DNA of 64,000 nucleotides from NCBI GenBank assembly GCA_044892505.1, contig CM097882.1, positions 419,926,001 through 419,990,000 on the forward strand. The letters run 5' to 3'. The DNA is from Schmidtea nova (lineage: Eukaryota). Shown in pieces: positions 2,361-42,118 of this stretch (position 1 is its first letter; each line of letters opens with the position of its first letter). Position numbers and translations under genes: made by a program. The notes under the pieces were generated by a model, which did not search any database, had not been told where the DNA came from, and was given only the letters and a program-made list of their open reading frames with translations.

Positions 2361-2437
2361 AAATATTTTTATTTTTTCGAATTTTAATAATTTTAAAATT
2401 TTTTCATACATTTTTTAATATTCTATTGTATATTAAG

Positions 2438-10327: not shown

Positions 10328-11544
10328 TTTGCGGTAAATCTGAATTATGTCTTTTTGATCGACCATCACCTCAAGCAGTTATTGAATATGGAGTGTTTGA
10401 AGATGTATTTCCAATGAATTCTATTACAGATAGTAGAAATGATGTTGAATTTTACATTAATGGATCGGCAACTGAATATTTGGATTTGAACGATACTTTA
10501 TTATCCGTTACTGTCAAGGTTCTAGATAAAGATAAAAATAAATTAGTTGATGCGAGTGATGTTGTGCCTAATAATTACCTGTTTCATACTCTTTTCAACG
10601 ATGCGATTCTTGGATTTAATAATATAAAAATCGAGGGTAGAAACAATACATATGCACACAAGGCCATAATCGAAACTGTTTTAAATTATACTAGCGATAC
10701 AAAAGAAACATGTCTTACTCCAATGGGATCAATTTCATCTGACGATAGGAAAAAGTGGATCAAGGGATCTAAACTTTTCAACATGTGTTCATCATTACAA
10801 CTCGATTTTATGGATCAACCTAAATACTTACTTCCCGGAGTTAATGTACATATTAGATTGAAGAGATCTGAATCTTCATTATCATTGAAATCTGCAGCTG
10901 GGAAACCAATAATCCAATTAGTAGACGCTAAATTAATGGTTCGAAGAGTTCGATGTGAATCTTCAGTTTTGGCCGGTCATCAAATTGGTTTAAATAGTAA
11001 ACATGCAATTTATCCATTAAAATCCAAAGAAATCGTATCGTTTGCAATCGGTAAAGGCGCATCGTCATTTTACAAGGAGCAAATATTTGGAGATAGAAGA
11101 ATGCCTAATTTCATTCTTGTGGCTTTTCAAACTGAAAATCAATATAATGGATCATATGCTGAATCTGCATCTACATTCAAACATTTCAATGTGACTTCAT
11201 TATCGTTATCGAAAAATACCGATTTTCGAGAAACTTATACTCAAGATTTTGAAAATGATAATTTTAGTGCCACATATATGCAAAGTCTTGTCAGAAATCT
11301 CGGATATTTGGATAAAAACTTGAATTGCGGTATAAGTCTGGATGAATTTAAAACTAAATATCCATTCTTTACATTTGTGCTCGCTCCCGATTTTGATTTG
11401 AATCAAAGTCAAATCCCTCAAAACGGAAATTTACGACTCGATATAAAGTTTGCAAAACCCATTGATGAACCGGTTCATGTAATTATATATGGAGTTTTTG
11501 AAAATGAAGTTCAAATTACTGCCAATCGAACAGTACTAGTTTGA
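10324..11544 (+). CDS. Polinton/adintovirus major capsid protein (double jelly-roll, hexon-like)
   Basis: Intact 406-aa ORF with CGKSELCLF, VEFYING...YLDLNDTLL, QPKYLLPGVNVHIRLKR and a C-terminal G.LRLDIKFAKP...VIIYGVFENEVQI, matching remembered Polinton MCP motifs; it lies between penton and protease. Confidence 0.9.
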   Translation: MICGKSELCLFDRPSPQAVIEYGVFEDVFPMNSITDSRNDVEFYINGSATEYLDLNDTLLSVTVKVLDKDKNKLVDASDVVPNNYLFHTLFNDAILGFNNIKIEGRNNTYAHKAIIETVLNYTSDTKETCLTPMGSISSDDRKKWIKGSKLFNMCSSLQLDFMDQPKYLLPGVNVHIRLKRSESSLSLKSAAGKPIIQLVDAKLMVRRVRCESSVLAGHQIGLNSKHAIYPLKSKEIVSFAIGKGASSFYKEQIFGDRRMPNFILVAFQTENQYNGSYAESASTFKHFNVTSLSLSKNTDFRETYTQDFENDNFSATYMQSLVRNLGYLDKNLNCGISLDEFKTKYPFFTFVLAPDFDLNQSQIPQNGNLRLDIKFAKPIDEPVHVIIYGVFENEVQITANRTVLV

Positions 11545-14093: not shown

Positions 14094-17000
14094 GTTCAAT
14101 TTATTACAATTTTTGTAATAGTAGTTCCCATAGTGACTGTCATGTCATTATGAAAAATACTATTCATTTAAATATAATGGTGTCACCCACCTCCTCTGCC
14201 CTAATTGTAAAATTATTGAAACAACATCTTATAGGGAATTTTATATCTTTCATAGGTCACACCTTTCTCAATACATGACTTCGAAAAAATCTCTTTTTAA
14301 TAGCTTATATGCTAATTATATTTTTAATAATAATACCTTTAATCGAAATAATATTAACAACAACAACAACAACTATCATAATACAATTAATAAAAATATT
14401 CTAAATAATCTACAAAATAAGAATACAATTAATCAAAATAATAACCTAAATCAAAATAATAACCTAAATCAAAATAATAATCTACAAAATAATAATAATA
14501 TACAAAATAATCTAAATAATACATCTAATTTAAATAAACGTAAAAATACAACATTAATGGATTCAGTTCCTAAAAAACTTATAATAATCGACATCNNNNN
14601 NNNNNNNNNNNNNNNNNNNNNNNNNNNNNNNNNNNNNNNNNNNNNNNNNNNNNNNNNNNNNNNNNNNNNNNNNNNNNNNNNNNNNNNNNNNNNNNNNNNN
14701 NNNNNNNNNNNNNNNNNNNNNNNNNNNNNNNNNNNNNNNNNNNNNNNNNNNNNNNNNNNNNNNNNTGAAGATGATCATATTTATAATAAAAGTAGCAATA
14801 TAGATATTATATCTGCCATTGACGATGACTTAATCGTCGTCAATGATGATGAATTTAATGAAATGATAAATATTATAAATAATAATAATCAAATTGGTAT
14901 GGGTATTGTTGAAGTTACTTCCGACTTGAACGATACCCATTTTATTATAAAAATGGACGTTTCTAATTTATTATTAAAAACGGTCTCTGTGCCGGATATA
15001 TTGTTAGAGAAATTAAACTCATATATAATTAAATTAAAATCATGTAAAATACAATTTTGTCTCAAGGTAGAATTTGAGAAAGATGATCAATTACAATCTT
15101 TTGTAATCTCAAATTCTGCCAGAGAGTGGAGTGATACCTTTATTGAGGAAGGTATCACTAGTTTAAATGAGAAGATTGTCCAGATTAACGAAAAGGGGAG
15201 TAATTGGACAATCTCCAAAATCGAATATATTAGTTTTTTAGTTACAAAATTTTCAGAGATTAGTAGGTTGAGCGGCAGCAGTTATATCGAAACTCCTAAT
15301 ACATTAAAAAATTTAAGTTGCCTAGTTAATGTCAACAATAACGACACTTATTGCTTTCTATATAGTTTTTTAGCAATAGTTAAATATGATAGTATTGAAC
15401 GCCAATACCGGCATAGGGTTACTTCTTACGATCTTTCCCAACTGACTTTTGACCCGAATGACATGCCTATGAAATTAGTCAACATTAAGAAATTCGAGAG
15501 GCAAAACCCCGGCTACAGCATTAATGTCCTTACATATGACGAAAAGGCCCAAATAGATATAAGTGATAGCGATAATGATGATAATGTCGTTCTTAAACAC
15601 CCTTTTATAGACATAGTATATCGCAGTAAAGTAGTCGGGGCAATTCCAATAAATTTACTTCTCTTGGAGAAAAAAGATAATTTTCATTATCTCGCGATTA
15701 CCGATCTGAATCGCTTTTTGAATTGCCGAAATAGTACCATCACCCCAGTTAGGATTTGCAGCCAATGGTGCCCTCGTTGCTTGAATGGCTTTAGGAACGA
15801 CGAAGCCTTTAATCGTCATAAGGGTCTTTGTACCAAAAATCAGTTGGGTACCACACTCTACACATTACCCAAAAATAAATTTTTAGAGTTTACTGATTGG
15901 AAGAAAACAGTAACTCCTCCTTTCGTAATATATGCTGATTTCGAAGCAATATTACCCAAAGATATTATTCATCACCAAAAACATATTCCTATTGCTGCCG
16001 GTCTTCTTCTGATAAACAACTTTACTGGGGTCAGAATTTACAAGTCTTTTGTAGGATTAGACTGTGTTGACCAATTTCTAAATGAAATTGAGTCAATCAG
16101 TAGATATATAGTCACTCCCTATTATTTTAAGAATTATAAAAAGCGCATGACCATCACTGCGACTTAACAGCGAGAATTTGACAATAGCACTAATTGCTAT
16201 TTATGTAAAAAGCTTTTAAATACCCCTGTTAGGGATCATGACCATTTCACCGGTCTTTATATTGGAGCAGCCTGCTCAGAGTGCAACAAGTCCCGGCAAA
16301 TAAGACACTCTTTGCCTGTTATCTTTCATAACTTGAAGGGCTATGATTTGCACCATATCTTAAAATATGGTCTTTCAAAATACAACACTTGGAATATCAG
16401 TTGTATTCCCTTGACTAGTGAAAAGTTTTTAAGCCTTTTCGCTTATATAGACAGTCTTACTGTTAAATTTATTGACTCCTATCAATTTGTGAGTGAGTCC
16501 TTGAACAATGCCGAAAAAACCCTTAGTTCTTTACCATTAACTCAGTCAGAATTTCGTGGCACTATAGTGACTGCCAAGGGCATCTTTCCATACGACGCTG
16601 CCACTTCTTTAGAAGTATTTAAATCTACCTTGTGTTTACCACCTAAATGGAAAGATATAACTGCTGTCGAGTATGCTGCGGCCCATAAAATTTGGCAAGA
16701 AACCTCATGTACATCACTGTACGATTACATGATGGTTTATTTGAAACTAGATGTTTTTTTATTAGCTGACTACTTTCAGCAATTTCGAATAAAACCAATT
16801 AACCATAACAGGCTTGAGCCTTTAAGTTTTCTCGGAATTCCCGGCATGTCGTGGAGTTCCGCTTTATTAACTCTTGACTCTCCTATCAAGCTCCTCGCCG
16901 ATATAAAGATGTATAACTTTTTCGAGGGCGGTATTCGCGGCGGACTAACGTTTGTCAATAAACATTATGTCAAAACGAGCCCGGATACCGCACTATTATA

Positions 17001-18271
17001 TATTGACATTAATAATTTATATGGGTGGGCCTTAAGCCAACCCTTGCCATGTGGTAATTTTGAGTGGGTCACTGATGACCAATTATTAAATAATATCGTG
17101 TTGCAGTGCACATCGGAAAATCTCGATACACTTCATTATGGTTACACCATAGAAGTGGATTTGGAAATTCCGGCATCGATTCACGACAAACTGGATGATC
17201 TTCCAGTTGCCGCTGAAAAGATGTGTGCACCGGGATCCAAGGTTGAGAAGCTGTTGCTAACGCATCTTCCAAAGAAGAATTATGTTATTCATTGGCGGCT
17301 TCTGCAACTATTTATTAAAATTGGTGTGAAAGTAACGCACATACATCGCGCTATTAAATATAACCAAGAAAAAATCTTTTTTAATTACATAAATATAAAT
17401 ACCAGTTTACGAGCGGCTGCAACTAACAAGCTCGACAAAGATTTTTACAAATTATTAAATAATAGTCTCTACGGCAAAACCGTAGAGAACTTAAAAAAAC
17501 GTATTAATTTGCGACTGTGTAACTCAGCACAAAAACTGCTGACTTACACGTCGAAACCAAATTTTAAAAAAACAAACAAAATCGATAGTGATCTGATCTC
17601 TGTATTGCTTCAGAAGGAATCAGTATGTTTGGATAGACCCAGCTACATCGGACAAACCGTACTGGATTTATCCAAACTTCGTATGTACCAGCTGCAGTAT
17701 GAAGAGTTACAAAAATATCGTAACGACTTCAACTGCGAAATTAACATCGTTGCTGGGGATACTGATTCCTTCTTCTTGGAAATAAAAAATCTGCCTTTGG
17801 ACACTCTTTTAGCTGCCATGATTCGCGATAGGCTTTTGGACACCTCTAATTACGACACTCGTCATACATTGTATAGTAGGACCCTTGATTCTGTGATTGG
17901 TAAATTTAAGGATGAGAACAAGGGTCTACTGTATGATGAGTGGGTTTTCTTAAGACCTAAATGTTATAGCTTGATGGGAGACGAGGCCTGCATGAAAGCT
18001 AAGGGTATCTGTTTAAAAGATGCAGGTCTCACACATCAGTCTTATCTCGACTGTTTTCTTAATGACAAAATCTATAATGTCCCCCAGTTCCGCATTACGA
18101 GCAAAAACCACCAACTTTTTAGTATTAAAAGCAATAAGAGAGCCTTATCTTGTAGGGACGATAAGAGGAACTGGGTGGATAAAAATAAAAGTTTGGCGTA
18201 TGGCCATTATATGGGGGGTGACACCACTATATTTGTAGGTGATGATGGATCAGAACAGCAGCAGCAGCTTC

Positions 18272-18351
<80 letters not shown>

Positions 18352-18411
18352 GGTCCGGCAGATGACCCCTACGAGTTTTACGATCCGACTGCTCGAGACT
18401 ACTTCGGATAA
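14094..18411 (+). pseudogene. polB: pPolB of unit B, with a 1-nt frameshift at about 14157, in-frame TAA at 16165-16167 and a C-terminal polyQ
   Basis: Track ORFs 14275 and 16312 share one frame and carry the same motif set as PolB-A (YADFEA, RDHDHFTG, YIDINNLYG, KLLNNSLYGK, GDTDSFF, KFKDE). Homology to PolB-A extends up to an AG acceptor at 14092-14093. Confidence 0.95.
18271..18351 (+). repeat. (CAA)27 microsatellite encoding polyQ in the PolB-B tail
   Basis: Read directly; in frame with PolB-B. Confidence 0.95.
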
Positions 18412-19273
18412 TGATGATGTTGGCAAGGATGAGAATGATGATGAGAATGACATGGAAAAAAAAACCAAAAAAAAAAGATATAAAGAAAATCAAAAACCAA
18501 AAAGATATGAGAATGAACAATCGGCCCTCTTCAGGGCCACAAATTATGATTGTGTAAAATAAACAGTTTTAGAAATCATTAATAAAAACCGAAAACAGAA
18601 AACCGAAAAGAAAACGGAAAAGAAATAATGAAACAGAAACCTAATAGAAATAATTAGAATTAAAAAAACAGAAAAGAAAACAGAAAATGAAGCCGATTCA
18701 GATTGTGAAAGATATAACGGTCCTCTTTAGGGCTTATATATTTTGATTGTAATAAATTGCGCAAACAATTAAAACTACGGATTTATTAATTTTTTGTTAT
18801 GTGTTGCTTATTTTTTTTTAAATGGTTATTTTTTATTTCAAGTTTTTTATAAGTTTAGTNNNNNNNNNNNNNNNNNNNNNNNNNNNNNNNNNNNNNNNNN
18901 NNNNNNNNNNNNNNNNNNNNNNNNNNNNNNNNNNNNNNNNNNNNNNNNNNNNNNNNNNNNNNNNNNNNNNNNNNNNNNNNNNNNNNNNNNNNNNNNNNNN
19001 NNNNNNNNNNNNNNNNNNNNNNNNNNNNNNNNNNNNNNNNNNNNNNNNNNNNNNNNNNNNNNNNNNNNNNNNNNNNNNNNNNNNNNNNNNNNNNNNNNNN
19101 NNNNNNNNNNNNNNNNNNNNNNNNNNNNNNNNNNNNNNNNNNNNNNNNNNNNNNNNNNNNNNNNNNNNNNNNNNNNNNNNNNNNNNNNNNNNNNNNNNNN
19201 NNNNNNNNNNNNNNNNNNNNNNNNNNNNNNNNNNNNNNNNNNNNNNNNNNNNNNNNNNNNNNNNNNNNNNNNA

Positions 19274-19735
19274 GTTCTTTGTTTAGTTTGCACGTGGATT
19301 GCAAAGTCCTTGTTTAGTTTGCACGTGTGTTGCAATGTCTCTGTTTAACTTGCATACGTGTTGCAATGTCTTTGTTCATGTTGCACATGTATTGCAATGT
19401 CTTTGTTTAGTTTGCACGCGTGTTGCAAAGTTTTCGATGACTCATATTTGTGTTAAAAAAATTTGTGTTAAAAAAATTTGTGTTAAAAAAATTTGTGTTA
19501 AAAAAATTTGTGTTATAAAAATTTGTGTTAAAAAAATTTGTGTTAAAAAAATTTGTGTTAAAAAAATTTGTGTTAAAAAAATTTGTGTTAAAAAAATTTG
19601 TGTTAAAAAAATTTGTGTTAAAAAAATTTGTGTTAAAAAAATTTGTGTTAAAAAAAAAATTTGAAAAAAATTTTTGGCGCGAAAAAAATTTGAAAAAAAA
19701 GTATGAGTCATCGATGACTCATCGATGAGTCATCG
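19274..19735. repeat. Composite array: ~30-bp TGCACGTG/TTGCAATGTCTTTGTT units, about 14 copies of 15-bp TGTGTTAAAAAAATT, then three 11-bp ATGA(G/C)TCATCG units
   Basis: Read directly; it occupies the same position downstream of PolB as the 7800-8930 array. Confidence 0.95.
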
Positions 19736-19747
19736 AAAAAAATTCTA

Positions 19748-19779
19748 CCCCCCTTCTCCCCCCGGGGGGAGGGGGTCTT
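19748..19779. other. C-run/G-run palindrome at the end of the array
   Basis: Perfect 16-bp palindrome CTCCCCCCGGGGGGAG at 19756-19771, followed by GGGGTCTT. Confidence 0.8.
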
Positions 19780-20288
19780 TGTTCTCTTTTTTCCGCCCAC
19801 GCAATGAGTCATAATGTCTTTGTTCCCGGCTCCACACATCTACCTACTTCGAAGCACGGCGAAACCTGAAAGGAATAACATAATAATAAACAGTAATAAC
19901 AATACAGAACTTGCCACTCGACCGAGATGAGATAGCTGTGTGATGAGCGAACAAAAACAATCAGGCGAGAACAAGAGCTGTCAAAATATCAGCAATAAAG
20001 AAAGCACAATATATAATAAATTACCATTGAGTAATTGAAAACCACTGAGGCCTGAAACAGAAAAGCGATGAATAATAAAATCTGTCAATAGAATTACCAG
20101 AGCAAAACGAAATTGCTGAACGCAGCAAATGCGGGGGCGGATTTCTTGGATAATAAATAAAAAACTAAAATAACAATAAAACCAATTAATCATAAGCAAT
20201 GAGTAATTACCAAAACTCATCGGTTTAATGAAAGAAAAATAAACAATTAAAAAATAAACGAATGACAAATAGACAACCATACTGAATT

Positions 20289-20326
20289 CTGATTGGTCAG
20301 AAGGCAAGGCCAAAACAATATATAAG
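20289..20326 (+). promoter_or_regulatory. Putative CCAAT plus TATA promoter
   Basis: CTGATTGGTC at 20289 and TATATAAG at 20319, the same layout as the unit-B promoter. Confidence 0.45.
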
Positions 20327-21429
20327 TAGTGACCAAATTCAAAATGGTAATGTCATTTTTATCAGCAAAGTCTTGTATTGTATCAAGTGCAACTTGTAGA
20401 ATCCAGCGAAATAAAAGGTATGCTAGTGATTTGTTTTTGATGTCATGTTTTCTTAAACTGTCATGCATTTCTTTTCATAAAATTGATAAGATCGCGTCCC
20501 GAAGGTCGTCGAATCTGAAGGGCGAAAAACGGGCCTCTCAGCGCATCACCTGGCGGTGACGGCTGATGCGGCGTTGCAGCATCAATAGAATGTGGAAGGG
20601 GTTGCACATGAGGTATCGTGAATGGAAAAGGTGGATGAGACATTCCACTGAGAGAAACTCTTTATCGAGTTAAAGTTAACGTATCTGAGAGAGAGAGACA
20701 ATTTTTAAGTAGCATTCGACATAGTGATTTCCGGTACCTATGACCCTATTGAAACAATTAAAATACGGGTATGCGACACATTAACCTCAATAATGTCAGG
20801 ATAATACAACCACTCCAAGGACACTAAGAATCAATTTCGTTCCAGAACGTAACATAGTGAGTAGATGAATGCATGGAGCGTAATGCTTGAATGAGTTGAA
20901 CGGTCGAATTATAAAGACGAGAATTTGATTGTAAAGTTACCGAGGTTGTATGATGGAGGAGTTCGCTTGTATAATGGCCAATGAATGCGCCATGAAATTG
21001 AATGAACAATGTCGCATGCAGTGAATGACAAATGATGATAGTATAAAATGATCCAAATTGTAACTGAACAAGTTGAGTTGATGAAATGCAAATGATAACC
21101 ACGTTTATTAAGTGCGGTGGTGGATGACGATGAAAACATGACTAAAAAGAATCAATGATAGATCAGAATGATAGATCAGAATGATGTCAAAAATTTTTAA
21201 GTAAACGAATAAATCATATGGAGGTGAAAGAATGATTGGGTATGCATGATGATAGAATGAGGAGTTTTGGGTGAAGTGAATCCCGCAACAACAGCTGTGG
21301 TATGATGGTCGGAATGGATGCCTAGTTTAATAAATTATAATCTCATCATATAAACGAACCAATGACATGAGGACGAATACCGGACCACATCAGCCCAAAC
21401 AATGGCAAACACTCCCACCCAAGGCTTTT

Positions 21430-21899
21430 ATAGACACAGAGGTACCTGAGAAGATAAAACAAGTAGTTGAAAGGAATATGCGCCACTGGCGAAGGAAACC
21501 GGTTCTTTGTTACCATTCGTGGGTACCAAATTGATGACCACGAGAATACGATAGGCAGGCGATGAGCACTGGCCTCTGATCGACGATACGAGACGACACC
21601 GTCAGACAGACTGGTTCCTAGAATTGTGTGATACCAAAGGAATTCCACAATGGTTGATACGATTTCAGCCGATATCGTTACATGTCTTTCATTGTCTGGG
21701 TTATATTCTGTTGGAGAGCCCGAGACACACTCGTACAGGAGAGCAGATTCCCTATTCCAATCTGCCGGAAGGAGTGCCGATTGCTGGAAGTCATGATTCA
21801 CCATGGATGTGTAACATACGTTGGCACAAAGAGTTCATATACCAAGGACGATTAAGTTTGCAACCAAATCCCGCGTATTATCACGCCAATGGAATCTAG
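21430..21899 (+). pseudogene. Unknown 'gene A', cassette copy 1 (disrupted)
   Basis: QVVERNMRHWRRK... and GIPQWLIRF...LGYILLESPRHTRTGEQIPYSNL...WMCNIRWHKEFIYQGRLSLQPNPAYYHANGI align with the minus-strand translation of 27365-27890. Confidence 0.6.
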
Positions 21900-22177
21900 A
21901 AAGATGAGAGTGAGTATGCTCAGGAGTGGAGCTTAGAGTCCGAAGATTGATAAGTGTGATGATCAATTGTAGTTAAAAATAAATAATTGTGACTTATAAT
22001 TAAATGAGTTCGTGTTGTGTGATGAAACTGATGAATGTGGTAAACGTTCAGAGATGGCTTGAAGTATGACGAACTGCTTAGAACCCATGACCTGAAACAC
22101 ATAACTGGGTAGATGAAATAGGGAAAGACTAGCATCGCTGTCAGCAACTCCATGTGTAAAAGTCATTTTTGTTTTAG

Positions 22178-22753
22178 ATGGAACTTCTACCCAAACCAGT
22201 AGACACTGAGGAGTACAATCAAGTCCGAAGGCATAACCGCATGCTAGAAGGAATGGTTAATAAATTTAGGGCGGAAAACGATGAACTCCGTCGAAGTTGG
22301 TTTTGCCCTACCGCGGTTGAAGGTATTCTGAAAGGCAAGGACAGAGTCCAAAGGGCGCTAGACGAGCAAATTATCGAACTGGCTGCAGTCAAGGTGGAAT
22401 TAAATAGATGCTTGCGAACGGTTTCAGAGCAGTTCATTTCTGACTATTTGAAAGACCAGATCCGAAAAACTACCTTTGATCGATGGGTGACCCCATGACG
22501 CATAACTACTGAGACCCAAACGGAAAACTTACAACAAATGAACCCCAGGCCTAAGGGAAATGAAGAAGCTAAGACAGGACCCATTGTCGCGAACGTTAAA
22601 ACGAAAAAGAGGAACCGACTGGGCGCAAAACGACGGCGTGAGCGCAGAGCATTCGCAGAGCGAATGGGAATCGAGGTAGATCTCCTCAGTGGATTCAGTG
22701 AAAGAAAATTGATAAAAGTGATTAACCCAAATGTATTGTTGAGTTACAAATAA
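22178..22753 (+). pseudogene. Unknown coiled-coil 'gene B', cassette copy 1, with in-frame TGA at 22496-22498
   Basis: Track ORFs 22178 and 22538 share one frame. ELAAVKVELNRCLRTVSEQFISDYLKDQIRKTTFDRW aligns with ORF 26411-26953; the C-terminus is basic (KKRNRLGAKRRRERR). Confidence 0.7.
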
Positions 22754-23157
22754 ATGTATAGTTAAATGACTTGGTTCGTAAAAGTTGATGAGTGATGCAT
22801 GGTAAAATAGAGGAGTGTCTGATTTAACTGATATAAACACAATTCATTTGACCGGTGATCACAAGAGAGATAATAAATAAACCCTAGACGTAATTAAATT
22901 GGCAACGGAACAAACCCACACAGACCTTCTATCAGTAGTGGTAGACCCGTAGATAAATGAGGGAATAGTAGCCGCAAGGTTGCTCACCTGCCTCATCATT
23001 CTAAAACGTTGATACAGTACCAACATGATGAGTAGTTAGGGATACATCATGGGTATCAAGGGGGAAGCGTGTTTATGTTGGTGAGATTACCCTAACCAGA
23101 ATATCAAAAATAAAATCTCAGTTGAAAAATCTATACCAACAGACTAGCAGGTTAGAC

Positions 23158-23905
23158 CAGTGGTTCTCAAAGCGTGTTCCGCGGAACACTGGTGTTCCGG
23201 CGATCACTTTCAAGTGTTCCGCGAAAAAATCAAATGTACAATTCAATTTAAAATTTTTCGCAAATAAAAATCAATTCAATATAAAATTTATACGTACCAT
23301 TCGGCTTTGTATAAATACAAATCGGGTTAAAATTATTTCTTGGAAACATAAAATATTATTGCAGTTTCAAAATTATTATTGTTATTTTCCACGTCATATC
23401 ATTGCGAAGCAGGATTTTCAACTATGGTTAATATAAGGACAAACAAACGCGAGAGACTATGGAATTTAGAAGAAGAAATGCGAGTAGCTTTATCATTTTC
23501 TCGTCCAAATATCACTGAGATCTGTAAATATCGTCAAGCTCATGTATCGCATTAAGTTTGATATTTTTTCAAAGTATTGTAATTTTAATTGTGTTTTCAA
23601 TAAATATATTTGCATCAATCAATATTGGTACATATTTTATTTATATACATATTTTTTCTAAAAGTAGCACTTTGAAACAGTCGGTTGCCAATTACACGCT
23701 GCAACACTATTCCGTTTCCTTTTTTGTTCTATAATAATGGAGTGTTTTTGCGAACATTATTCTATTTTTTATTGCTCTTTTGATTTTTTAAAAGGTTAAC
23801 TACCTTCGCCTCCTGTTTTAAAGTTTATGTTGTATTGTAGATGTTCCACCTAAAAATGTATCAGAGTTAAGTGTTACCCGACTTCAAAAAGTTTGAGAAC
23901 CACTG
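23158..23905 (+). mobile_element. Non-autonomous hAT (Charlie/Buster-type) element, 748 bp
   Basis: TIRs CAGTGGTTCTCAAA / TTTGAGAACCACTG and a perfect 8-bp TSD GGTTAGAC (23150-23157, 23906-23913); internal transposase C-terminal remnant RERLWNLEEEMRVALSFSRPNITEICKYRQAHVSH*. Confidence 0.95.
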
Positions 23906-24262
23906 GGTTAGACAATAGTGATTTGGTTACCATAGAATTCGATTCTGCTATGGTACCAGCAATTTTAATAAAATGAATTTTGAAATAGAATCAAAGTAGG
24001 TAAAACTTTGATAATGAAGAATTTGATATTGGAAAGGCTGATTTTTGTAATTATTAAAGACGAAATTGAATTTGTTGAACTTAGTATCATTAAATAAAGT
24101 AATAAACAAAATACGGATAAAATAAAGTCAATCAAAGAATTCGAAAGACCAAAATGTTTAGAGATTACAAAAATAGTTTTAATGAATTTTCACATTGAAA
24201 GAGTAATCAAAATATTTTCACAGATTTATACCAAAAATTATATTATTAAAAAATTATTATAT

Positions 24263-24814
24263 TTATAAAAATTGTAATAATTGTAGGAATACTAAAAACC
24301 AATTAGATTTTATTAATAGAAATTGATCGCTAATTGATAAGCCGGTTTTTCGCAACCGGAGATCTTGATCAATGATATCAAGAGTTGAAATGAGAAGGCT
24401 CCATGACAGTTTGTATTGATTGATTTCCGGTGCTGACAAATAATCCATAAATCGAGATTGATTGTGATCCAATGTATTGATTTGTAGATTTTTAGAGTTA
24501 GTCATTTCCGATTTGTCTGGATTGTATATTAATATTGATCCAGTTGTTGACAAGCATCTTCCAGTTTGTACAACTTCTTTTCGCATTCCAGCAGCGAGTC
24601 ATTTCTGCAATTTACAGAACTGGAAATTGTTTCTTCTTTGAATATCGACTACACAATCTCCACTAGGATGGCACTGATAATTGCTGTCATTTGATGAAAA
24701 CGAGTCACTGTGAATGTCTTGGGTGAACTGTGGTGAATTATCAATCATTAAACACTGGCCGAGTGTCGTTGAGTTGTTAACGGGGTATATCGAATCATTG
24801 TTAGTAGTTTGCAT
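24263..24814 (-). pseudogene. Nuclear hormone receptor fragment: second C4 zinc finger plus C-terminal extension only
   Basis: Track ORFs 24599-24814 and 24263-24586 share one frame: [40 protein letters not shown] matches the NR finger-2 consensus, with one Cys changed to Phe and another to TGA. Confidence 0.8.
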
Positions 24815-25155
24815 TTTTTGTTTGTGATCAGCGTGAATATGAAAATATGTAAATATTAAAACAAGTCTATTAATTTTTACTCCATTTAATAATTACTTAA
24901 ATTAAATTAATTAATTTAAAAAATAAAAGAAATTTATAAAATTGAATATTTAATCTAAGGCACTACAATAATTATAATAAAATTATATAAGTATTTCTTC
25001 GGATGTCATCTTGGTTGTATTTCCAATGAATTGAATAAATATATTTTATTTTACGGAAAATTTATTTACATTTAAATACACTGTATTATGTAATCATATA
25101 ATATTTATATAATAACAAGTCTAAAAATACATAAAACATTTTCAAAGTTCAAAAC

Positions 25156-26103
25156 ATGCCTATGAGAAAAGTAACAAAAAGTTTACAAGATAAAAAACGT
25201 GAAAAATCGAAATCAAAAAAATCAACTTCAATATTTAAATCAATTTTAAAAAGCATAACAAAGGGGAAATTTGCACCTTTCCTTTCAAAATTTAGATCAA
25301 ATTTTAACAAAGAGCCAGCTAATGAATATGTTGTTCTGAAACCCTTATATACTACCAGTGGGTCCACCATATTGCTAGTAGAAGAGGAAAGATCTGGACA
25401 AAAATACATTCAGAAAGTGTTTAAAAACGCTTTATTTTTTACAAATGAATTGAAAATGATGCTTAAAGTTGGTCAACATGACAATATAATTCCATTCATT
25501 GAATCCATTGACTCCTACATATTAGGCAAATCTCTGATATACGAGTTTGCTAACGGCGGTGATCTCTGCCATGAAATCATGTCAAGTGGAAGAGTTACCA
25601 ATCATACAGCCATGACAATAATGTTACAAGTTTTTAGTGCAGTCTCATTTATACATTCAAAGTCCATCATTCATCGTGACATAAAGTTAGATAACATTGT
25701 TTGCTATAAACATAACAATATCTTGATAAAAGTCAAACTGATCGATTTCGGGTTTTCTATTATATATGATAAGAAAAAGCCCATTGTAAGTTTGGCAGGA
25801 ACAGTGGGCTACATGGCACCGGAAATGCTTTTATATCAACCCCATACGTTGGCAGTTGATATATGGTCATGTGCGATTCTCATGATAACTGTTTGCACTG
25901 GTCGTCATCCATTGAATCCGAATATATTAACGACATTTGAAATTAAAAATATAACTCTCTATGGTAAAATAGACCTGGCTGTCATTGAAGACATAGATAC
26001 ATTTGTCGCAAATATTATTCGAAAGATGTTGCTAAAAGCACCATCACAACGACCACCAGCAATTGATATATTGAACAGCCTGAAAAGTCACTGTTTTGAC
26101 TAA
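25156..26103 (+). CDS. Intronless Ser/Thr protein kinase (CAMK-like), 315 aa
   Basis: IYEFANGGDL, IIHRDIKLDNI, KLIDFGFS, GTVGYMAPE and DIWSCAI are present; the Gly-rich loop is degenerate. Confidence 0.92.
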   Translation: MPMRKVTKSLQDKKREKSKSKKSTSIFKSILKSITKGKFAPFLSKFRSNFNKEPANEYVVLKPLYTTSGSTILLVEEERSGQKYIQKVFKNALFFTNELKMMLKVGQHDNIIPFIESIDSYILGKSLIYEFANGGDLCHEIMSSGRVTNHTAMTIMLQVFSAVSFIHSKSIIHRDIKLDNIVCYKHNNILIKVKLIDFGFSIIYDKKKPIVSLAGTVGYMAPEMLLYQPHTLAVDIWSCAILMITVCTGRHPLNPNILTTFEIKNITLYGKIDLAVIEDIDTFVANIIRKMLLKAPSQRPPAIDILNSLKSHCFD

Positions 26104-26410
26104 ACTTGAAATGAATAAATAAGTAGTATAGGATAATTTTGTAATATAATTATAATTTTATAGTATAAATATAATATAATTTTTATAATTTTAAATTCTG
26201 AATTTTGGAAAATTTTTTGTAAATTAGAGAAAATATTTTTTGATTTATTATCTGAAAAAATAAAACCAAAATTCATTAAATGATGATTAAAGTTTGTAAT
26301 GATATTTCATTATTAATAATAATCTGATAGTTTAGTCACATGCTGCAGTTTGGGATCTTTTATAAAGAAAGACCGTTATAAAAAGAACACGTTTATACTA
26401 TTGAGGATAC

Positions 26411-26953
26411 CTAAATAATAAATAATATTATAAATAAATAGAATAACTTTGGGGAAAAACCGATAGGGTGATTGAGGTAGCATTCTGGAATTTGAAAAAG
26501 AAAACGGAAAAGGGCTGGTGTGTGGTGTGACGATTGAGTTGTATTTGGTCTCGCATTAGGGCAAACTCCACCAACATAAAAACGTAAACCCCGCGATGGA
26601 TCCGTTTGCGTTACTCTCGTTGACAAATGCTGAGTTGCCCATCTTTCAAACGTTATTCGTCGTATTTGTTCCTTTAGGTGCTGATATACGAAGTCTGATG
26701 TGACTGCTCTGAGGCACCGATTTAGTTCAAGTTTAGTGGCCGACAGTTCCGTCGCTTGGTCGTTTATCGCGTGATTTAGTCGATCAATCCACTGCATTGC
26801 CAACTTCATACTGGCTGGAGCGAACCAAGTTTGGTGCATTTCTTTGTTTATTTGGATTTGGTGTGTCAGCCTCTTTACTAGTGACGCTTTCTCACGTTTT
26901 AGTTGTCTGACCATCTGTCGGTATTCGATTATTTCTCTACTTCCTTTACTCAT
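26411..26953 (-). CDS. Unknown coiled-coil 'gene B', cassette copy 2
   Basis: ELSATKLELNRCLRAVTSDFVYQHLKEQIRRITFERWAT...TQT is homologous to 22178-22753. Confidence 0.7.
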   Translation of the reverse strand: MSKGSREIIEYRQMVRQLKREKASLVKRLTHQIQINKEMHQTWFAPASMKLAMQWIDRLNHAINDQATELSATKLELNRCLRAVTSDFVYQHLKEQIRRITFERWATQHLSTRVTQTDPSRGLRFYVGGVCPNARPNTTQSSHHTPALFRFLFQIPECYLNHPIGFSPKLFYLFIILFII

Positions 26954-27364
26954 CTACAAAATAAAGCATTCATGCATACCATAATAATGATCCCCTCCGC
27001 AAACTATGTATACGCAGACTCCCCTATTTATCACGAACTCCTTTCCCAAAATGTGATTGGCAACTCTATCGGATTACTGGGATAATACAGGTTCTATATC
27101 AATTTGGCAGTCCAAACATTTGCACTCCACATTAGTATCTCCCCGTCTGTAATTGACACTCCAATAATTACTATTGATTAAAAGTCTCAACCAGTCACTG
27201 CAGTTACTAACACGATGTTCAAATTTTAACAAAAAACTTCTTGAAAACAATCAACAAACATTCCATTAACATCAAACGAAGTCGTAAAACGAAAACTAGC
27301 TAACAAAGTTAAATATTCAAAAATTAAACAAAATCATATCGGTATATGAGTTCACCGATATACT

Positions 27365-27890
27365 TCAGCTGCAGTGATAGATGAGCTCCTGAGAGAACTT
27401 TTCACCCTCTTTTATGATCCCATCAGCACTATAGATAGCTGGGTTGGGTTTCCAGCATAGGTGTGTCTGATAAAAAAACACTTCCTGAATTCGAATCTTT
27501 GCCGCCCAATCTGATCTTTCTCTCCATTCATCTTGAAACATGAATTTGAGATTGGAATATTCCTGAATTTCTCCTGTAGTGATGTACCACGGTCTGTCAA
27601 AACACGATGAAGCCGAGTGAGTTTAACTCTTGGATCTTGATGTCATAGAAATATATCAGTCATCTGGGTACATTCAATACATCTCGAAGTACAATGGACC
27701 ATTGGGTGACACCATGTTCCAATTATGTAGAGGGCCATCGTGGTACGCCTTTCCACCATACTTCTTCATTGGCCTTCTTCATTTTCCCATATCCCGAATG
27801 GGGCTTTCGATTGGAATTGGCGTCGCTACGTCCATATATGGTGGTTCACTTCTCGTAGGACGACTTGTGGGAGTACTTTAGTACGATGTT
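27365..27890 (-). pseudogene. Unknown 'gene A', cassette copy 2 (stops and a frameshift)
   Basis: Manual translation: QVVLREVNHHIWT*RR...VPR*LIYF...LGFIV[fs]DRPWYITTGEIQEYSNL...WAAKIRIQEVFFYQTHLCWKPNPAIYSADGI, homologous to 21430-21899. Confidence 0.6.
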
Positions 27891-30800
27891 AAGCCGGTTT
27901 GACTATAATTCCATTGCGATAATATCGGACTATTGTTGAACTGGATTGTCGAGATTGCGTCTTCATATTCTAACTGCTAAAACACAAACATACTAACATA
28001 CTCACACATCATACCCGTCACTTGGTAAAAATATTGAAAATAATAATAATGTTGAGAATCTGAGAATCTCAACCTAAGGTTCTTATATAAATAAATAAGT
28101 CAACACTGGTTCTTACTAAATTTTTTATTAAATAACAAAATAATAATTACCAGACTAAATCAAAATCAAACAACTTCTTTCAAATCAAAATTTGTCTATG
28201 TGTGAATGTGTTATGATTGTAATATGTAATGCGTGAATGCTGTTCTGAGTTCGATTTACTGTATGCTCTAATTTAATTTTATAGTCGATAACAACTAAAA
28301 GATTTTCAATCGCGGTGATTTTTGGGGTGGTTTGACTGAAAAATCAGTCTACTTATATATCAATTTTTTGTTGACACTCTTTTTCGAATGTCAACACACT
28401 TTTTTATATTTAAAAAAAATATTTTGCACAAAAAAGTGATGTTTATTTTTGAGCACTTAGTGCTTTTATTTTCTGGCATTAAAAGTGCCTTTTTTTGCGA
28501 ATTTTCATTTTTTTTGCTCGATAATAATAATAATTTTTAAAATGATAATAATAATCATAATTATAATTATAATGATATAAAGTGATTTTCTTCTTAAAAA
28601 TTCTTACTCTATCTAATACGAAACAAAATTGATGTTGTCGGTTTTCCAATTGAAAATTTTCTTGCTTTTATAATTGCTTATTAAACAACTTTTAGAGTAA
28701 AAACTTAGAATTCTAAAAGAATATATAAAGTTAAATATATGCTACCAATAAACAAGAATATTAAAATTAAGAAAAGAACTTTATTGCAATTTTGAAAAAT
28801 AAATTTTCAAAATTATTGAATATTAAAAGGAAAACTTTCATTAATCTTTTATTTAGTCTCAGTCCTCTGAGAAAATATTTATTACTTTGGAAAGTAATTA
28901 AGCAAATATTCGACTGAGAAAATCAATTTTTATTTCGCAAAATTATGGCTTAATCTTATTCTTTCAAATATTTTTATTTTTCAAACAATTTATATACATA
29001 TAAGTAGGAAGGCTTCGAATAAATAATTTTTATAATCAATTAAATGTCAATTCATAATTTCTGACGATGCTAAAAATTCTTAGACAATTCATGGAAAAAT
29101 AGATCTTGCATTGAATTTTAGAAAATTGGATAACAATTCAGATTTCAACTGATTCTAATTATCAAATTACATATTTTAAATAAACGAATATTTTTATCAA
29201 ATCTTAAAATTTAATTGGAAATGAAAATAAATTTTGTCTATGATCAAAATAATAATAATAACAATTATTTTTTTTACAACAATAGTAATAATAATATTTT
29301 ATTTCCCTTATTCACGCATAATTACATTTAAACAAAAATTTAAAAAATCAGTAAATTAAATAACAATATCATTAAAATCATAGTTAATTTTGTTTATCAA
29401 CAAAATAAAATTAAATGATCAATTTTTTCAAAAACGTTCATGGTTGTTGTTCCATCATTATCGGTTTGATTGGTCCCGCTTGTGATCTACATATATGTTA
29501 ATTCTGTACTTATTGGTACCTATTGTGTAATATTTTATGTGTATTTTTCCATGCTTTATATATGGTTGCTTTCTATATATATGTGTGTGCCACAAAATTA
29601 CAAATCAATTTTTTAGTGCTTTTCTCTCAACCGATTCACTTCAAATTTTGCACACTTGCTCACTTCCGGTGACAAAACATGGAAATTGATAAATTTGTCC
29701 AAAAAAAGTTAATTAAGTTAACTAAATAACAATTTGAATTTCCCCATACATTTAACAATGGACGAGAGGTAAATGTGTTGGTGTCTTCAGAGAAATTTTG
29801 CGTGTAAATGTAATATAAATTGCAAAAAAAAATTTCTCAGCCAAGTGGAGTTCTGCTCGCATAAAGCATGGATTTGAAAAAAGAATTTTTTTTTGATTTA
29901 TTTATTTTAATGTGTAACTCTTATGACCGTTCCATCTTCTAACAATAAAAAGAATCAAAACGACTGCAAAACTCATCCCCCTTTATTTAGTAATGGCCAT
30001 TTCACAACGACATACCGATAACGTATCAGGTGAACTTCTCTGCGAAGCTGTGAAAATTCGATCTGCCCGGTTCAACTATTACATAATTATGAACTCACGA
30101 CAGAAATTACCAGTGAAATATTTCCGTTTCCCTGCCTTGGCATTTCTCGTTATGGTAAACATTATGGTAAACATTATGGTAAACACGCTACTGGTCAATT
30201 TCGTCGTATTACGAACGGGTTTATCGATCTACAAATCGCAAATATTTCTCAACTATGTGTGGACTAAACAAAGTTGTTACGAATATACCTTACTCCTATT
30301 ACTCAAATACATTACGAACTTTATAGTTTTACACTATGGATTTATCTCAACCTTGTGCACATCCCTATTTGGATTAATTGCCTCGTTTGATTCGGACTCA
30401 ATAGACCATTATGTTGGTACTTTTATAGAAAAACGAAATGTCCTATATTTCTACATCCAAACCGCTCTCAAATTTTGTTGAAATGGTTACCGAAAAATGA
30501 ATGAAATACTCATGTGGTATTTAATAACCGTTACTTGTCATGTGTGGAACTGCTTAATCTAAACCAATCAATTGAATGCCCTATGTGTGTTAAAATACTT
30601 TTCCTCAATACTCTCAATACCAAATTATGAAAACCTCGTTCGTTAGAAAATAAAATCATTACAAATCAAACACTATGTGCAATTCCCCTCCCTGTATTAG
30701 GTGCACAGTCACCGCATAGCACAACTTCCAAAGGAGTAAGGACGAGAGGCCAATTCCGCCTTATGGGTTGCGAGGCCACTATAACGTAACCTTAATGATT

Positions 30801-33750
30801 TTGGAAAAATGAAGGGTTACCCGATATCAAAATGAACCACAAAAACAAAAATCAATGTATACTTTCATTGATTTTGATTTATCCACAGTACAAATTTCTA
30901 GTCACAAATCAGATGCTAATTCACAACTATCACAAGCTAATAAGTAAGTCTCCGTATATCGTGGTACAACACCAGATGTGTATCTGACTGATTTTAACTT
31001 TGGTATTTATACCGGTTGAGATTTTTAACCAGCCAATCAAAGGGCTTCTGTTGGCAATTAATTGGTAAGGTTTAATTATTTATTATTTGTTTACCTTTTT
31101 AATTCCCATCAATTTAAGATTTTTGGAATTCCTTTCGCTGTTGGGTAAATTTGATTGCTAATAAATATTTATTTTATTTCTTGTTTCAGGTTACCTTATC
31201 TGGAATTCCTAAGCTGTTTGTTTGACTTATATTAAAAATATTTGATTTACATTATTTATTTATTTCAACCCTCAATTTGATGTCCTGGGTAATATTTATT
31301 TAATTTGTAATTTTATTTTTAAATGGATTTTTGGATAATTGAATTGTATTATTTTTAGTCATCCCGTCTACTCAATTTTCTGCGGTAAGTTTTCGTATAA
31401 TTTACTATTATTATACTTTTATTTACATTTATTTCTATAAATTTATTTTACTTTACAAATCTTCTTCTACTTACTGGGTGGTTTATTTTAACTTGTTATT
31501 TTAATATTTATTATTGTTTTTAATTATTTGTCTTTTAGGCTCCATTTGGCTGGCCTAATAAAAGCAAAAATTTAGAAATGAGGAAGAAATAACAAAATAA
31601 AAGAAATTAAACAATAGAGCAGAGAAAGGTCACTTAAGAGTGCAAGAAAACAAAATGGAATTCCAAAATTTGGAAAACAAAATCGGCATCTCAACAGCTG
31701 TCAGAAGTAACATAGGAACTAAGGAAAAAATATGCAAAATGTCAGCAGCAGAAATGAAAAAAATAAATTACCTCGAGTCCCAAACGGTCATTGGTAACAC
31801 GAGAGTTGAATAAAGAAAAGGAAAAATGCCAGAGGCAGGAATGGGAAAAACGAATTATTATGAGTGCCGGACAATGGCGAACTTTAAAAGCGAAAAAATA
31901 TCTTAATTAAATCAGAAGTGAAGTGGTGTTAAAAATTGGATTAGGAAAGTTGCGCGATATTTGAAAGCAGTAGAAGATTTAAATTGAATAATTTCGTGAT
32001 ATTGTAGAGAAACGATATCGAGATAATTTTATTGAACTGTGTGACGAAATTTGGATTGAATAAAAAAATCAGAGTATATTTAATAAAGTCAAGTCAAAGC
32101 ACAAGGAAAATCGAAACCAATTTACCCAATTGTTGAGTCAAATCGGTGGCTAGTGATTATTAGAGTATTTGGGAATTATACACTTGAAGTTATTCCTCAC
32201 GAAGCGTTGTAATAAGTTCCGGAAAATTGCCTAGTTGAGTGTTGAATCGATCCAGTTATTATAATTCGTGTAATCAACTGTGCTAATCAATAAAGGTTTA
32301 TATTGTCTGAGAATTGTTATTTTGTGGATCAAATAAAGCACGCTTTGGAGTCAGAAATTTGATTGGTAACTTTTACATTTCACAAACAAGCCAACAACCC
32401 AACAATACCCACCTGCCCACTAACCTGATCTGTCATTTTTTATTCACTCTGCAACATAAATTATTTTGAAAAAACGATCTTTTATTAAAAATATTTAATC
32501 CCGTACTTATTAGTCTGTAAAATTTGTAGATCAGTCATATTATATACAGGGCTGCTGGTAGTAAAAAGGTATTGTTGTTAAAAAATGGATGAATCAAAAA
32601 AATTTTGAAATTAAAAAATTACACTTTAGGGGACAACAAATATAGAATAAACATCAACATATACAGGAATGATGCAAACAATCCAGTCTACCTATCAACA
32701 ACTATTCAATAACAATTTGTGATGTCGATTATTTCAATCATTTTAACAATTTATATGATATCTGATGGATTCTATTAATTTATTTATCGATTGAATTGAT
32801 TTTATTACCTTTAGTTGCTGTGATTGACTTTTGTGAAAATGACAATTTATATGTAATTCTGATCTGTATTTGATGGGCTTTATTATAATTTATCGATTTT
32901 AATGTATTGATTTTATTATTTTGTTTTTTAGATTTTACTAAACACATGTTAAACATGGCAGCGATGTAATTTTAAAAAATAAAATGTTATCCCGGGTCAG
33001 GACACCCATACACCCATATATATATTTCATTATTATTGTTACTACCACTTATTAACATTATTATTATTATTACTATTATTAAATGGTGATTCCTTGTAAG
33101 CAGCATTAAGTATTAAATAAATTAATAAAGTAACAAAATAAGCCTTTGCCGCAAAAATAATTTATCAGATTATCAGATTAACATCCAATGAAAAGGAAGA
33201 GAAATCAAGAAAAAAGAAACAACAGAATGAATGAAGATACCAGTTATTTGCCGAATTAGAGATTGACGAGGATTATTTGATAATCGAAAATTTTCTCACT
33301 TAATAAAATTATTTTTGCAGCAAAGGCTTATTTTGTTACTTATTTATTATTATTATTATGCACTTAAAGTGCAACTGGCATTTCGACGCCTAGCGTCAAC
33401 AATTCTTTGCACCTGTTGTTGCTTTAATTCTCTGCTTTTTATTGAGCAATACACACACATATATAATAGTTAATTAAAGCCCTCAAGGGGCTAAAATTAA
33501 TTTTTTTTGAATTGTTATTATTTTTAATTGACGCAAGGCGTGGTTTATAAGCATTTATCTTTGTATTTACTTATACTTTTATACTTTTGAGTTAATTCTA
33601 CATTTGAATTCATTTGAATGCTATTTCTGCTGTCTTGCAGATAATTCCAAAAAATTAACAAAAAGTCAAATAATAATAATTTATTTCTCTTCAAGCCAAT
33701 TACAAGAACAATTTGCTATAATAGATTATTGATCACCACCACCAAACGAT

Positions 33751-36700
33751 TCATCCATAAATGAAACGAGAAATTGATCCATTTCTAAATGTACATTTAT
33801 ATATTAAACGAAAATCGAGAAAATGAAAATTTGCACCATCATCAAAAAACTCAATTTCATTTTTATCTGGAACAATCGATGGAGCGATTTGTTGATAAAC
33901 AGGTTGATTAACAGACGCTCGGTTTGTCATGTCATTTAATACAGATTTGGGATCGAAAATAATTGGCGGAATTTCAGAGCACTCAATTATAATATCTTCT
34001 ATGTCTTTTATACAGATCAACGGGTGATTTCCCCAATCTTCATCTCCTGGAGAAATTATGTCTGCGATATTTGACTTGGTTACGTTGAAATAATATTTCT
34101 TTCCGGATGGAGAGAAAATTGATACCTGATTATTATGAATGTAATATAAAAATATTTCGATTTTCAAGCCAGTATTTTTTAGATGTTTTGAATAAAGATA
34201 ATTATCGTAATAATAGTGTTCTGAAATTGATAGTTTTAGAGAAAATGATACTTAACATATATTCCGTTGTTGACGTCATTTTTTAATGTATAAATATGTG
34301 TGTGTCCGACAATTTAATTTTTTTAAATTATTTTTTAATCATTTCAATTATCGTATATTTATATAAAGCACAAAAGTTATTCTTATATAATATTACCTAC
34401 ATATTATTTCTGTATGTGATAACTTTAATAAATATATGATAAATTTATGATAAATGTATTCTTATATAATATTACCTACATATTATTTCTGTATGTGATA
34501 ACTTTATAATAAATATATGATAAATTTATGATAAATGTATTCTTATATAATATTACTTACATATTATTTCTGTATGTGATAACTTTAATAAATATATGAT
34601 AAATTTATGATAAATGTATTCTTATATAATATTACCTACATATTATTTCTGTATGTGATAACTTTATAATAAATATATGATAAATTTATGATAAATGTAT
34701 TCTTATATAATATTACTTACATATTATTTCTGTATGTGATAACTTTAATAAATATATGATAAATTTATGATAAATGTATTCTTATATAATATTACCTACA
34801 TATTATTTCTGTATGTGATAACTTTATAATAAATGTATGATAAATTTATGATAAATGTATTCTTATATAATATTACTTACATATTATTTCTGTATGTGAT
34901 AACTTTAATAAATATATGATAAATTTATGATAAATGTATTCTTATATAATATTACTTACATATTATTTCTGTATGTGATAACTTTAATAAATATATGATA
35001 AATTTATGATAAATGTATTCTTATATAATATTACCTACATATTATTTCTGTATGTGATAACTTTAATAAATATATGATAAATTTATGATAAATGTATTCT
35101 TATATAATATTACTTACATATTATTTCTGTATGTGATAACTTTAATAAATATATGATAAATTTATGATAAATGTATTCTTATATAATATTACCTACATAT
35201 TATTTCTGTATGTGATAACTTTAATAAATATATGATAAATTTATGATAAACGTATTCTTATATAATATTACTTACATATTATTTCTGTATGTGATAACTT
35301 TAATAAATATATGATAAATTTATGATAAATGTATTCTTATATAATATTACTTACATATTATTTCTGTATGTGATAACTTTATAATAAATGTATGATAAAT
35401 TTATGATAAATGTATTCTTATATAATATTACTTACATATTATTTCTGTATGTGATAACTTTAATAAATATATGATAAATTTATGATAAATGTATTCTTAT
35501 ATAATATTACTTACATATTATTTCTGTATGTGATAACTTTATAATAAATGTATGATAAATTTATGATAAATGTATTCTTATATAATATTACCTACATATT
35601 ATTTCTGTATGTGATAACTTTATAATAAATGTATGATAAATTTATGATAAATGTATTCTTATATAATATTACTTACATATTATTTCTGTATGTGATAACT
35701 TTAATAAATATATGATAAATTTATGATAAATGTATTCTTATATAATATTACTTACATATTATTTCTGTATGTGATAACTTTAATAAATATATGATAAATT
35801 TATGATAAATGTATTCTTATATAATATTACTTACATATTATTTCTGTATGTGATAACTTTAATAAATATATGATAAATTTATGATAAATGTATTCTTATA
35901 TAATATTACTTACATATTATTTCTGTATGTGATAACTTTATAATAAATGTATGATAAATTTATGATAAATGTATTCTTATATAATATTACTTACATATTA
36001 TTTCTGTATGTGATAACTTTATAAACAAAATTATAATTTTTATCAAGAAAAAGTATTAGACCACTTTATGAAATATTAGATTTTAATAATTATAATACTT
36101 AATTTAATTAGGAAATTAAAAAATTCAAGTAAATATTAATAATATTTTTTTAAATATTGAATTTCCGTCATAAAAATATTTTTTTTCATTAAGTATAGTT
36201 AAAAAGGAAAATTAAATGAAACTACTAGAAAATAAAGATAATTATCGTAATAACAAAAGTGTTCTGAAATTGATAGTTTTTGAGAAAATGAAACCTAACA
36301 TATATTCCGTTGTTGACGTCATTTTTAATGTGTATACATGTGTGTGCGTCCGACAATTTATTTTTTTTAAATTATTTTTTAATCATTGCAATTATAGTAT
36401 ATTTATATAAAAGCACAAAAGGTATTCTTATATAATATTACTTACATATTGTTTCTGTATGTGATAACTTTATAAACAAAATTATAATTTTTATCAAGAA
36501 AAAGTATTCGACCACTTTATGAAATATTAGATTTTACTGATTATAATACTTAATTTAATTAAGAAATTAAAATATTCAGGTAAATATTAATAATATTTTT
36601 TTTAAAAATTGAATTTCCGTCATAAAATATTTTTTTTCATTTAGGTATAGTTAAAAAGGAGAATTAAATGAAACTACTAGAAAAGTTATTGAAGTTCTTT

Positions 36701-41856: not shown

Positions 41857-42064
41857 CTAAATGAACTCATAAATTTTAAATGAGTAGAAATGTGTTTTAA
41901 AAAAAGTTTTAAAAAATTCTCAAAGTTAAGTGACAGAATTGATATGCATTTCCAAAAAAAATAAAAACGATAAAGGGGTTAATGGAGTATGACTTGTGAA
42001 TTAAATTTTTTTGTGAATTAAAACTTTGTTGAAGGTCAAATAAAAGAAATTGTATAATTAAAAA

Positions 42065-42068
<4 letters not shown>

Positions 42069-42115
<47 letters not shown>
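42069..42115. repeat. (TA)n microsatellite abutting the transposon TIR
   Basis: Read directly. Confidence 0.95.

Positions 42116-42118
<3 letters not shown>

Follow-up and report, generated by a model that had tools for sequence, protein, structure and literature searches.

Accessory genes in or overlapping long terminal repeats (LTRs) are known from vertebrate retroviruses, where sag of mouse mammary tumour virus (MMTV), nef of human immunodeficiency virus (HIV) and bel2 of foamy viruses are small spliced open reading frames (ORFs), each a single gene of the U3 region, and regulators of the Rev, Rem and Rex type carry an arginine-rich basic motif. Among planarian elements, the giant Gypsy-like Burro (GYPSM1) is described in a passage of PMC6431247 as about 30 kb long, with a polyprotein of ~5,000 amino acids holding gag, env and protease, reverse transcriptase, RNase H and integrase (PR-RT-RH-IN), an env related to mononegavirus fusion proteins, ankyrin, RING and MATH/TRAF cargo, BIR and BCL-2-like domains, and a very high copy number. 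The same passage places the extra ORFs of unknown function of the plant Ogre/Tat retrotransposons, which have multi-kb LTRs, in the interior of the element. Here we analysed 64,000 nucleotides of Schmidtea nova (assembly GCA_044892505.1, contig CM097882.1, positions 419,926,001 to 419,990,000; hereafter the window), in which a gene pair, A followed by B, occurs once on each strand. Both pairs are, with high confidence, decayed solo LTRs of a giant Burro-like retrotransposon of the Gypsy type, whose LTR carries two genes under selection that are likely spliced and likely regulators of the element. The two copies and their genes have the following window positions.

19849 to 23149, + strand: copy 1, a solo LTR ending in ...ACTAGCA, with its first ~113 bp missing here
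21424 to 21947, + strand: gene A of copy 1, 76% to a natural open copy, broken
22178 to 22754, + strand: gene B of copy 1, with an acceptor-like TTTTAG immediately 5' of its ATG
26513 to 31560, - strand: copy 2, a solo LTR of a different subfamily, with the target-site duplication (TSD) CTTT on both flanks
27377 to 27885, - strand: gene A of copy 2, located with a hidden Markov model of natural A frames and tblastx
26599 to 26953, - strand: gene B of copy 2, of which the 5' two thirds remain

All four A and B genes in the window are pseudogenes. Gene A of copy 1 is disrupted by a frameshift near 21495 and by stops at 21552 and 21897, and the adjacent gene B has a premature stop at 22496, its true stop being covered by an AATAAA at 22749-22754. 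In copy 2, gene A is spread over three frames with internal stops, and a deletion fuses the gene B remnant to the terminal ~90 bp of the repeat, making the 180-aa ORF a chimera. Copy 1 aligned with positions 114-3422 of a solo LTR with a 4-bp TSD (L080) at 82.7% identity over 3361 columns; its missing ~113 bp were found neither in the window nor in the 20 kb upstream. The LTR of copy 2, enlarged by other repeats at about 28050-30600, has a CCAAT at 31038 and a TATA at 31011, and its TSD is exact, yet its terminal bases are mutated. An earlier annotation made from the letters alone (the sequence-only reading) had described the two A-B pairs as homologous but diverged, which three tblastx blocks (E 1e-27, 34-44% identity) bore out; at the DNA level almost no similarity remains, blastn giving short matches only (best 25/29, E 0.001). 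The units are larger than that reading had drawn them, spanning the full LTR intervals listed above. Moreover, the two copies fall into different subfamilies in the tree of B, the copy 1 group being well supported and the placement of copy 2 unstarred, and thus represent independent insertions and not an inverted duplication.

The limits of the unit emerged from its relatives. A ~3.3-kb unit common to ten relatives of copy 1 starts with TGTTGG and ends with CCAGCA, and an exact 4-bp TSD flanks 6/10 of them, the remaining four having a truncated, interrupted or ambiguous end. Both ends were present in five of 18 diverged loci, with an exact TSD in four and one mismatch in the fifth, and the diverged subfamilies share their LTR ends with the relatives of copy 1. 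The unit thus has the TG...CA ends and the short TSD of an LTR. Two of thirty LTR 3' ends continue into a common interior, at whose start lies a primer site of the tRNA type, a conserved TGG-starting 18-mer located 6-7 nt downstream of the CA end. Because of this offset, searching by pattern for a primer site adjoining the CA gave no match, and neither did a pattern search for a purine tract. In the 1.25 Gb of genome searched, the LTR-primer site junction had 631 exact matches, against 0 for the control. The primer site is putatively of the tRNA-Pro type; no matching tRNA gene was found in six loci checked, all six being primer sites of related elements. Another abundant family (L247-L252) has the same primer site with a different LTR end (1,890 pattern matches at <=1 mismatch).

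All five primer-site junctions that we sampled belong to elements of 28.3-29.9 kb with exact 4-bp TSDs and two direct LTRs of 3.2-3.3 kb that are 99.4-100% identical, and hence these elements are very young. An AGGGG-containing motif, not a pure purine run, is conserved before the 3' LTR in 5/5 elements and in L134. In each of the five, both LTRs have an open gene B, and gene A, likewise open in these young LTRs, was found by tblastn in four; the fifth has an ORF of 135-170 codons in its place, with the A motifs only weakly shared. According to Pfam, the primer site is followed by a RING ORF, gag, CCHC knuckles, a Monjiviricetes fusion protein, protease, reverse transcriptase, RNase H, integrase and ankyrin repeats, an order that contains the gag, PR, RT, RNase H and integrase succession of the Gypsy type (Metaviridae), with the env-type fusion protein (PF24664) between knuckles and protease. 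The polyprotein frames total about 5,000 codons, some of them split by stops or a frameshift, and downstream lie a separate TRAF/MATH ORF and two further, unassigned ORFs. These last two, between the TRAF ORF and the 3' LTR (L189:1349-3134 and equivalents), have about 360-400 and 176-193 codons and weak coiled-coil-type Pfam rows. The subfamily of copy 1 itself connects to this interior on both sides. L134 has 76% identity to window 19852-20181, and the 1.5 kb before it match the 3' interior of two full-length elements at 86%; L173/L166, which has a copy-1-type start and is 76-83% identical to parts of copy 1, leads into the primer site and then the RING ORF. The A/B unit is therefore an LTR, and the retrotransposon to which it belongs is self-sufficient, with its own reverse transcriptase and integrase. 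Pairs of 3' ends lying 24-41 kb apart were rejected as elements, since they turned out to be solo LTRs with interruptions or the result of tandem or segmental duplication.

The majority of copies occur singly with a TSD, 28/30 ends lacking the primer site, which would also suit a stand-alone 3.4-kb DNA transposon, Ginger-like in its TG ends and 4-bp TSD and mobilized in trans by an integrase. The ends match each other in inverted orientation over only ~6 bp, however, and the same unit was found in direct-repeat pairs that have the primer site and a motif resembling a purine tract, which refutes this explanation for the family; we rate it as highly improbable.

The element is very likely a member of the Burro group, an assignment made from its layout, which also points to a planarian host. 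It resembles Burro in size, in the env between gag and pol, in PR-RT-RH-IN, in its ankyrin, RING and MATH/TRAF cargo and in its high copy number. It differs in that TRAF/MATH is here a separate ORF downstream of the polyprotein, and the Burro passage of PMC6431247 mentions no ORFs inside the LTR. With the Ogre/Tat elements it shares multi-kb LTRs and extra ORFs, which are here located in the LTR. No description of ORFs in Burro LTRs was found in the literature searched, the primary Burro papers lying outside that search, and prior publication is possible; the parts consulted of PMC6431247, PMC11410931, PMC8532177, PMC13465017, PMC13238120 and PMC8797187 make no mention of such ORFs.

With at least 150 matches to B in the genome, among 8,778 candidates, the unit is a dispersed repeat. 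A/B matches occurred in 3/18 evenly spaced 10-kb control stretches, about one per 60 kb; at this rate, by our own arithmetic, two copies per 64 kb have a probability near 0.3, and thus the presence of two copies in the window is unremarkable. Solo LTRs arise through recombination between the two LTRs of an element, and those described here are likely the product of such recombination between paired LTRs. An Rfam scan of two loci gave no match.

The sequence-only reading had placed copy 1 where the capsid module of a Polinton would be and had proposed a mobile or viral module, possibly a satellite using Polinton replication. The feature that abuts copy 1 is the following.

19273 to 19848, no strand assigned: terminal region of a PolB (Polinton-type) element, ending in ...CTACCTACT flush against LTR position ~114

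We take this to be a Polinton terminus from its AGTAG end and the adjacent PolB. It replaces the first ~113 bp of copy 1, at the other loci listed for it unrelated sequence follows, and elsewhere it interrupts B or pol sequence; a later insertion of the Polinton into the LTR of copy 1 is therefore the most likely course of events. The unit-B junction that had been noted before copy 1 is this Polinton end, which lies inside the LTR. The ORFs at 9031-9969 and 10321-11544, presumed penton and major capsid genes that gave no database match, precede PolB, an arrangement that recurs in another such unit, and since they lie before PolB nothing is missing after it; the PolB unit ends at 19848. For a satellite replacing the capsid module speak the adjoining PolB unit of copy 1 and PolB in 6/20 B-centred 10-kb loci, a frequency that was not above the 2/18 of the evenly spaced controls (Fisher p 0.24). 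Around relatives of copy 1 it was found in 2/20 stretches, giving 8/40 against 2/18 when combined (p 0.71), and an MCP-like (major capsid protein) gene was found in 0/40 test loci. Furthermore, the ends of the A/B unit share only ~6 bp in inverted orientation and form no terminal inverted repeats, there was no jelly-roll capsid among the significant fold matches for the model of A, and the LTR hallmarks together with paired-LTR elements that have their own reverse transcriptase and integrase refute a satellite. A satellite of this kind is therefore next to impossible in our judgement; of the earlier proposal the mobile module survives, as the LTR of a retrotransposon, and dependence on Polinton replication falls.

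Two side observations concern the same neighbourhood. Window 2437-6399, 9031-11544 and 14137-19848, as well as L227, contain two tandem decayed PolB units, both PolB genes having in-frame stops; the ORFs before each PolB we assume to be penton-like and capsid-like. A Polinton-type terminus lies inside or beside Burro-like sequence at L092, L066, L186, L080 and window 19848.

Genes A and B are under purifying selection, as judged from sequence comparison of natural open frames: the ratio of nonsynonymous to synonymous substitution (dN/dS) was 0.09-0.24 for A (23/27 pairs measurable) and 0.06-0.20 for B (14/33 pairs), the remaining pairs being saturated at silent sites. The A-then-B order is kept in 14/18 diverged loci. 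Both proteins diverge fast, the identity of A between subfamilies falling to 15-23%. As the sequence-only reading had stated, neither belongs to a recognised family (no match in Pfam, NCBIfam or PHROGs), and homolog searches with A alone and with a 51-row alignment of A gave no match. An Atlas search returned nothing above 0.78 for either protein, single-protein scans of viral contigs (A and B) and metagenome contigs (B) gave no match, and a sequence-profile search of the PDB with both yielded weak coiled-coil or chance rows only. The profile of B found one outside match (E 7.4e-4), an unnamed 407-aa protein (P0001) that shares with B a WFxP motif and a basic run but has 26% identity and twice its length; the E-value from a further search whose alignment already contained P0001 is circular. 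The structure prediction that had been recommended succeeded for A, which from the 51-row alignment was modelled as a helix plus beta-strand domain with a predicted local distance difference test (pLDDT) of 85 and a predicted template modelling score (pTM) of 0.78, against a pLDDT of 35 from the single sequence. The model had no structural match in PDB or BFVD (Foldseek E>0.28; VIA-align best Z 2.5), which is no proof of a new fold. Conservation in A falls mainly on W, G, P and aromatic residues; one Asp, one Asn and one Arg are conserved as well, and a metal-binding cluster is not apparent. A forms a compact tryptophan-rich domain and likely acts by binding rather than as an enzyme. In B, a region read as coiled coil surrounds the WFxP motif, and an arginine-rich tail has 9-12 K/R per 18-residue window in 27/27 frames, which a plain nuclear localisation signal would fit equally.

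The signals around the genes suggest how they may be expressed. In copy 1, where a CCAAT/TATA promoter had already been recognised, these are:

20289 to 20419, + strand: promoter-like block of the LTR with a reverse CCAAT at 20289, a TATA at 20319 and an initiator-like element at 20350
20418, + strand: splice-donor-like AAAAG/GTATG

In 13/13 LTRs a reverse CCAAT lies ~30 nt upstream of a TATA at 378-401 (584 in one), and 8/13 have a donor-like motif near 500-690. An acceptor-like YAG was found <=8 nt from an early ATG in 29/33 A and B ORFs against 27/93 internal ATGs (with two tries per ORF about 50% are expected), and the RING ORF beyond the primer site likewise has an acceptor-like AG before its ATG. 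An AATAAA overlaps or touches the stop in 11/21 B frames and in 0/12 A frames. Transcription would thus probably begin ~30 nt past the TATA box, which sits at LTR position ~400. Splicing would then join a short leader exon to the acceptors that immediately precede A, B and the RING ORF, and the RNA would be cleaved at the AATAAA on the stop of B. A and B would thereby be part of an R region of unusual length (~2.4 kb), and a single LTR, whether the 3' LTR of an element or a solo LTR, could by itself express the two genes, each LTR being a complete expression unit.

Alternatively, A and B may be located in U3, like MMTV sag and HIV nef, with the genomic RNA starting near the LTR 3' end and the CCAAT/TATA at ~400 serving as a separate promoter for the two genes. 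Four young LTRs have TATA-like words at ~2920-3090, a second AATAAA ~195 nt from the LTR end is kept in 5/13 LTRs and offers another R boundary, and a long R would require 2.9-kb strong-stop DNA, which is unusually long. On the other hand, the 5' CCAAT and TATA are the sole pair found conserved in 13/13 LTRs, and the AG before the RING ATG fits one shared leader; we regard the U3 arrangement as a serious though unlikely rival.

If A and B are indeed in R, the unspliced ~27-kb RNA would have to pass the 5' poly(A) site and exit the nucleus. In complex retroviruses, this problem is solved by Rev/Rem-type proteins. Because the full-length RNA would face it here, B, whose predicted coiled coil is accompanied by an arginine-rich tail, was taken as a putative Rev/Rem-type nuclear RNA-binding regulator for 5' poly(A) passage or nuclear exit, an analogy that we put forward tentatively and rate below even, though as the likeliest of the roles considered. 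More generally, A and B are likely spliced regulatory genes of the element. They resemble the retroviral accessory genes in the location of the ORFs in the LTR, in their presumed splicing and in the arginine-rich basic motif, and they differ in being two whole genes that follow a conserved TATA within the LTR of a Gypsy-type element; no similarity to the retroviral genes was found in sequence or fold.

A and B might instead be cargo that counters silencing (piRNA or chromatin) or manipulates the host, for example cell survival, and not regulators of RNA processing. The element bears RING, TRAF/MATH and ankyrin cargo, planarian LTR elements are targeted by PIWI (according to the part consulted of PMC8532177), and the fast divergence of A and B between subfamilies and their loss in some lineages would be in keeping with such a role. 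Yet no motif or fold of A or B links them to any silencing factor, and the dN/dS values denote constraint and not positive selection. We consider this function somewhat unlikely.

Several observations weigh against A and B as spliced regulators in the LTR of a Burro-group element. The donor-like motif near the start is missing in 5/13 LTRs, the TQT motif of B is present in 15/27 frames only, and a leucine-rich export-signal pattern in 22/27 compares with 18.1 in shuffled sequences. The compared sequences are related and the motif counts therefore not independent, and the second AATAAA described above adds to the same side. Of 20 further primer-site LTRs, 8 have neither ORF and 4 have B only, and 11/30 primer sites have no A/B match within 1.5 kb upstream; hence A and B are not needed in cis and are dispensable in some lineages. 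No Pfam match to BIR or BCL-2 was found in the pieces of three elements searched, which did not comprise every frame, and BCL-2 may need a profile-profile search. A full-length element of the copy 2 subfamily itself was not found.

Two observations on LTRs without the genes may be added. L222 and L224 are primer-site-bearing elements with deleted LTRs of ~1.57 kb that lack A and B, possibly non-autonomous derivatives complemented in trans. One subfamily with neither gene in its LTR has a homolog of B downstream of the primer site (L150:2114-2488), which suggests that the B gene has moved between LTR and interior.

The window contains further features beside the two LTRs, one of them just outside the LTR end of copy 1.

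23158 to 23905, no strand assigned: small DNA-transposon-like insert CAGTGG...CCACTG with the 8-bp TSD GGTTAGAC

Between the LTRs, at 25135-26103 (+ strand), lies an intronless Ser/Thr kinase ORF of 322 codons (Pfam Pkinase) with one paralog (44%) 134 kb away; it has the appearance of a retrocopy or of a host gene in low copy number. A transposase-like fragment with a helix-turn-helix (DUF4817) was found at 42058-43307, a separate small Gypsy gag-protease remnant at 52756-54698 and a tandem array of about 20 copies of ~79-bp units at 34268-36080.

The annotation of the locus is thereby corrected, the A and B ORFs being cargo of a transposable element and not part of a Polinton. LTRs are usually regarded as non-coding and solo LTRs as promoter relics, whereas in the present case two selected genes reside in the LTR of an env-bearing element that is very abundant and was active recently. 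In its fullest form, which we hold to be doubtful, a spliced two-gene cassette would have moved into R of a Gypsy-type LTR, thousands of solo LTRs would have been born as promoter-gene-poly(A) units, B would be an independent Rev-like factor and A a new fold. A passage of the citing paper PMC13465017 says that the cargo of Burro1 supports planarian stem cells, and unnoticed genes of the Burro type are thus worth testing. If A and B are expressed from solo LTRs, the genome would hold potential regulator genes in the order of 10^4 copies, a rough figure derived from 3/18 stretches. The lasting interest of the locus lies in a selected two-gene cassette inside an LTR and in the unmatched fold of A.

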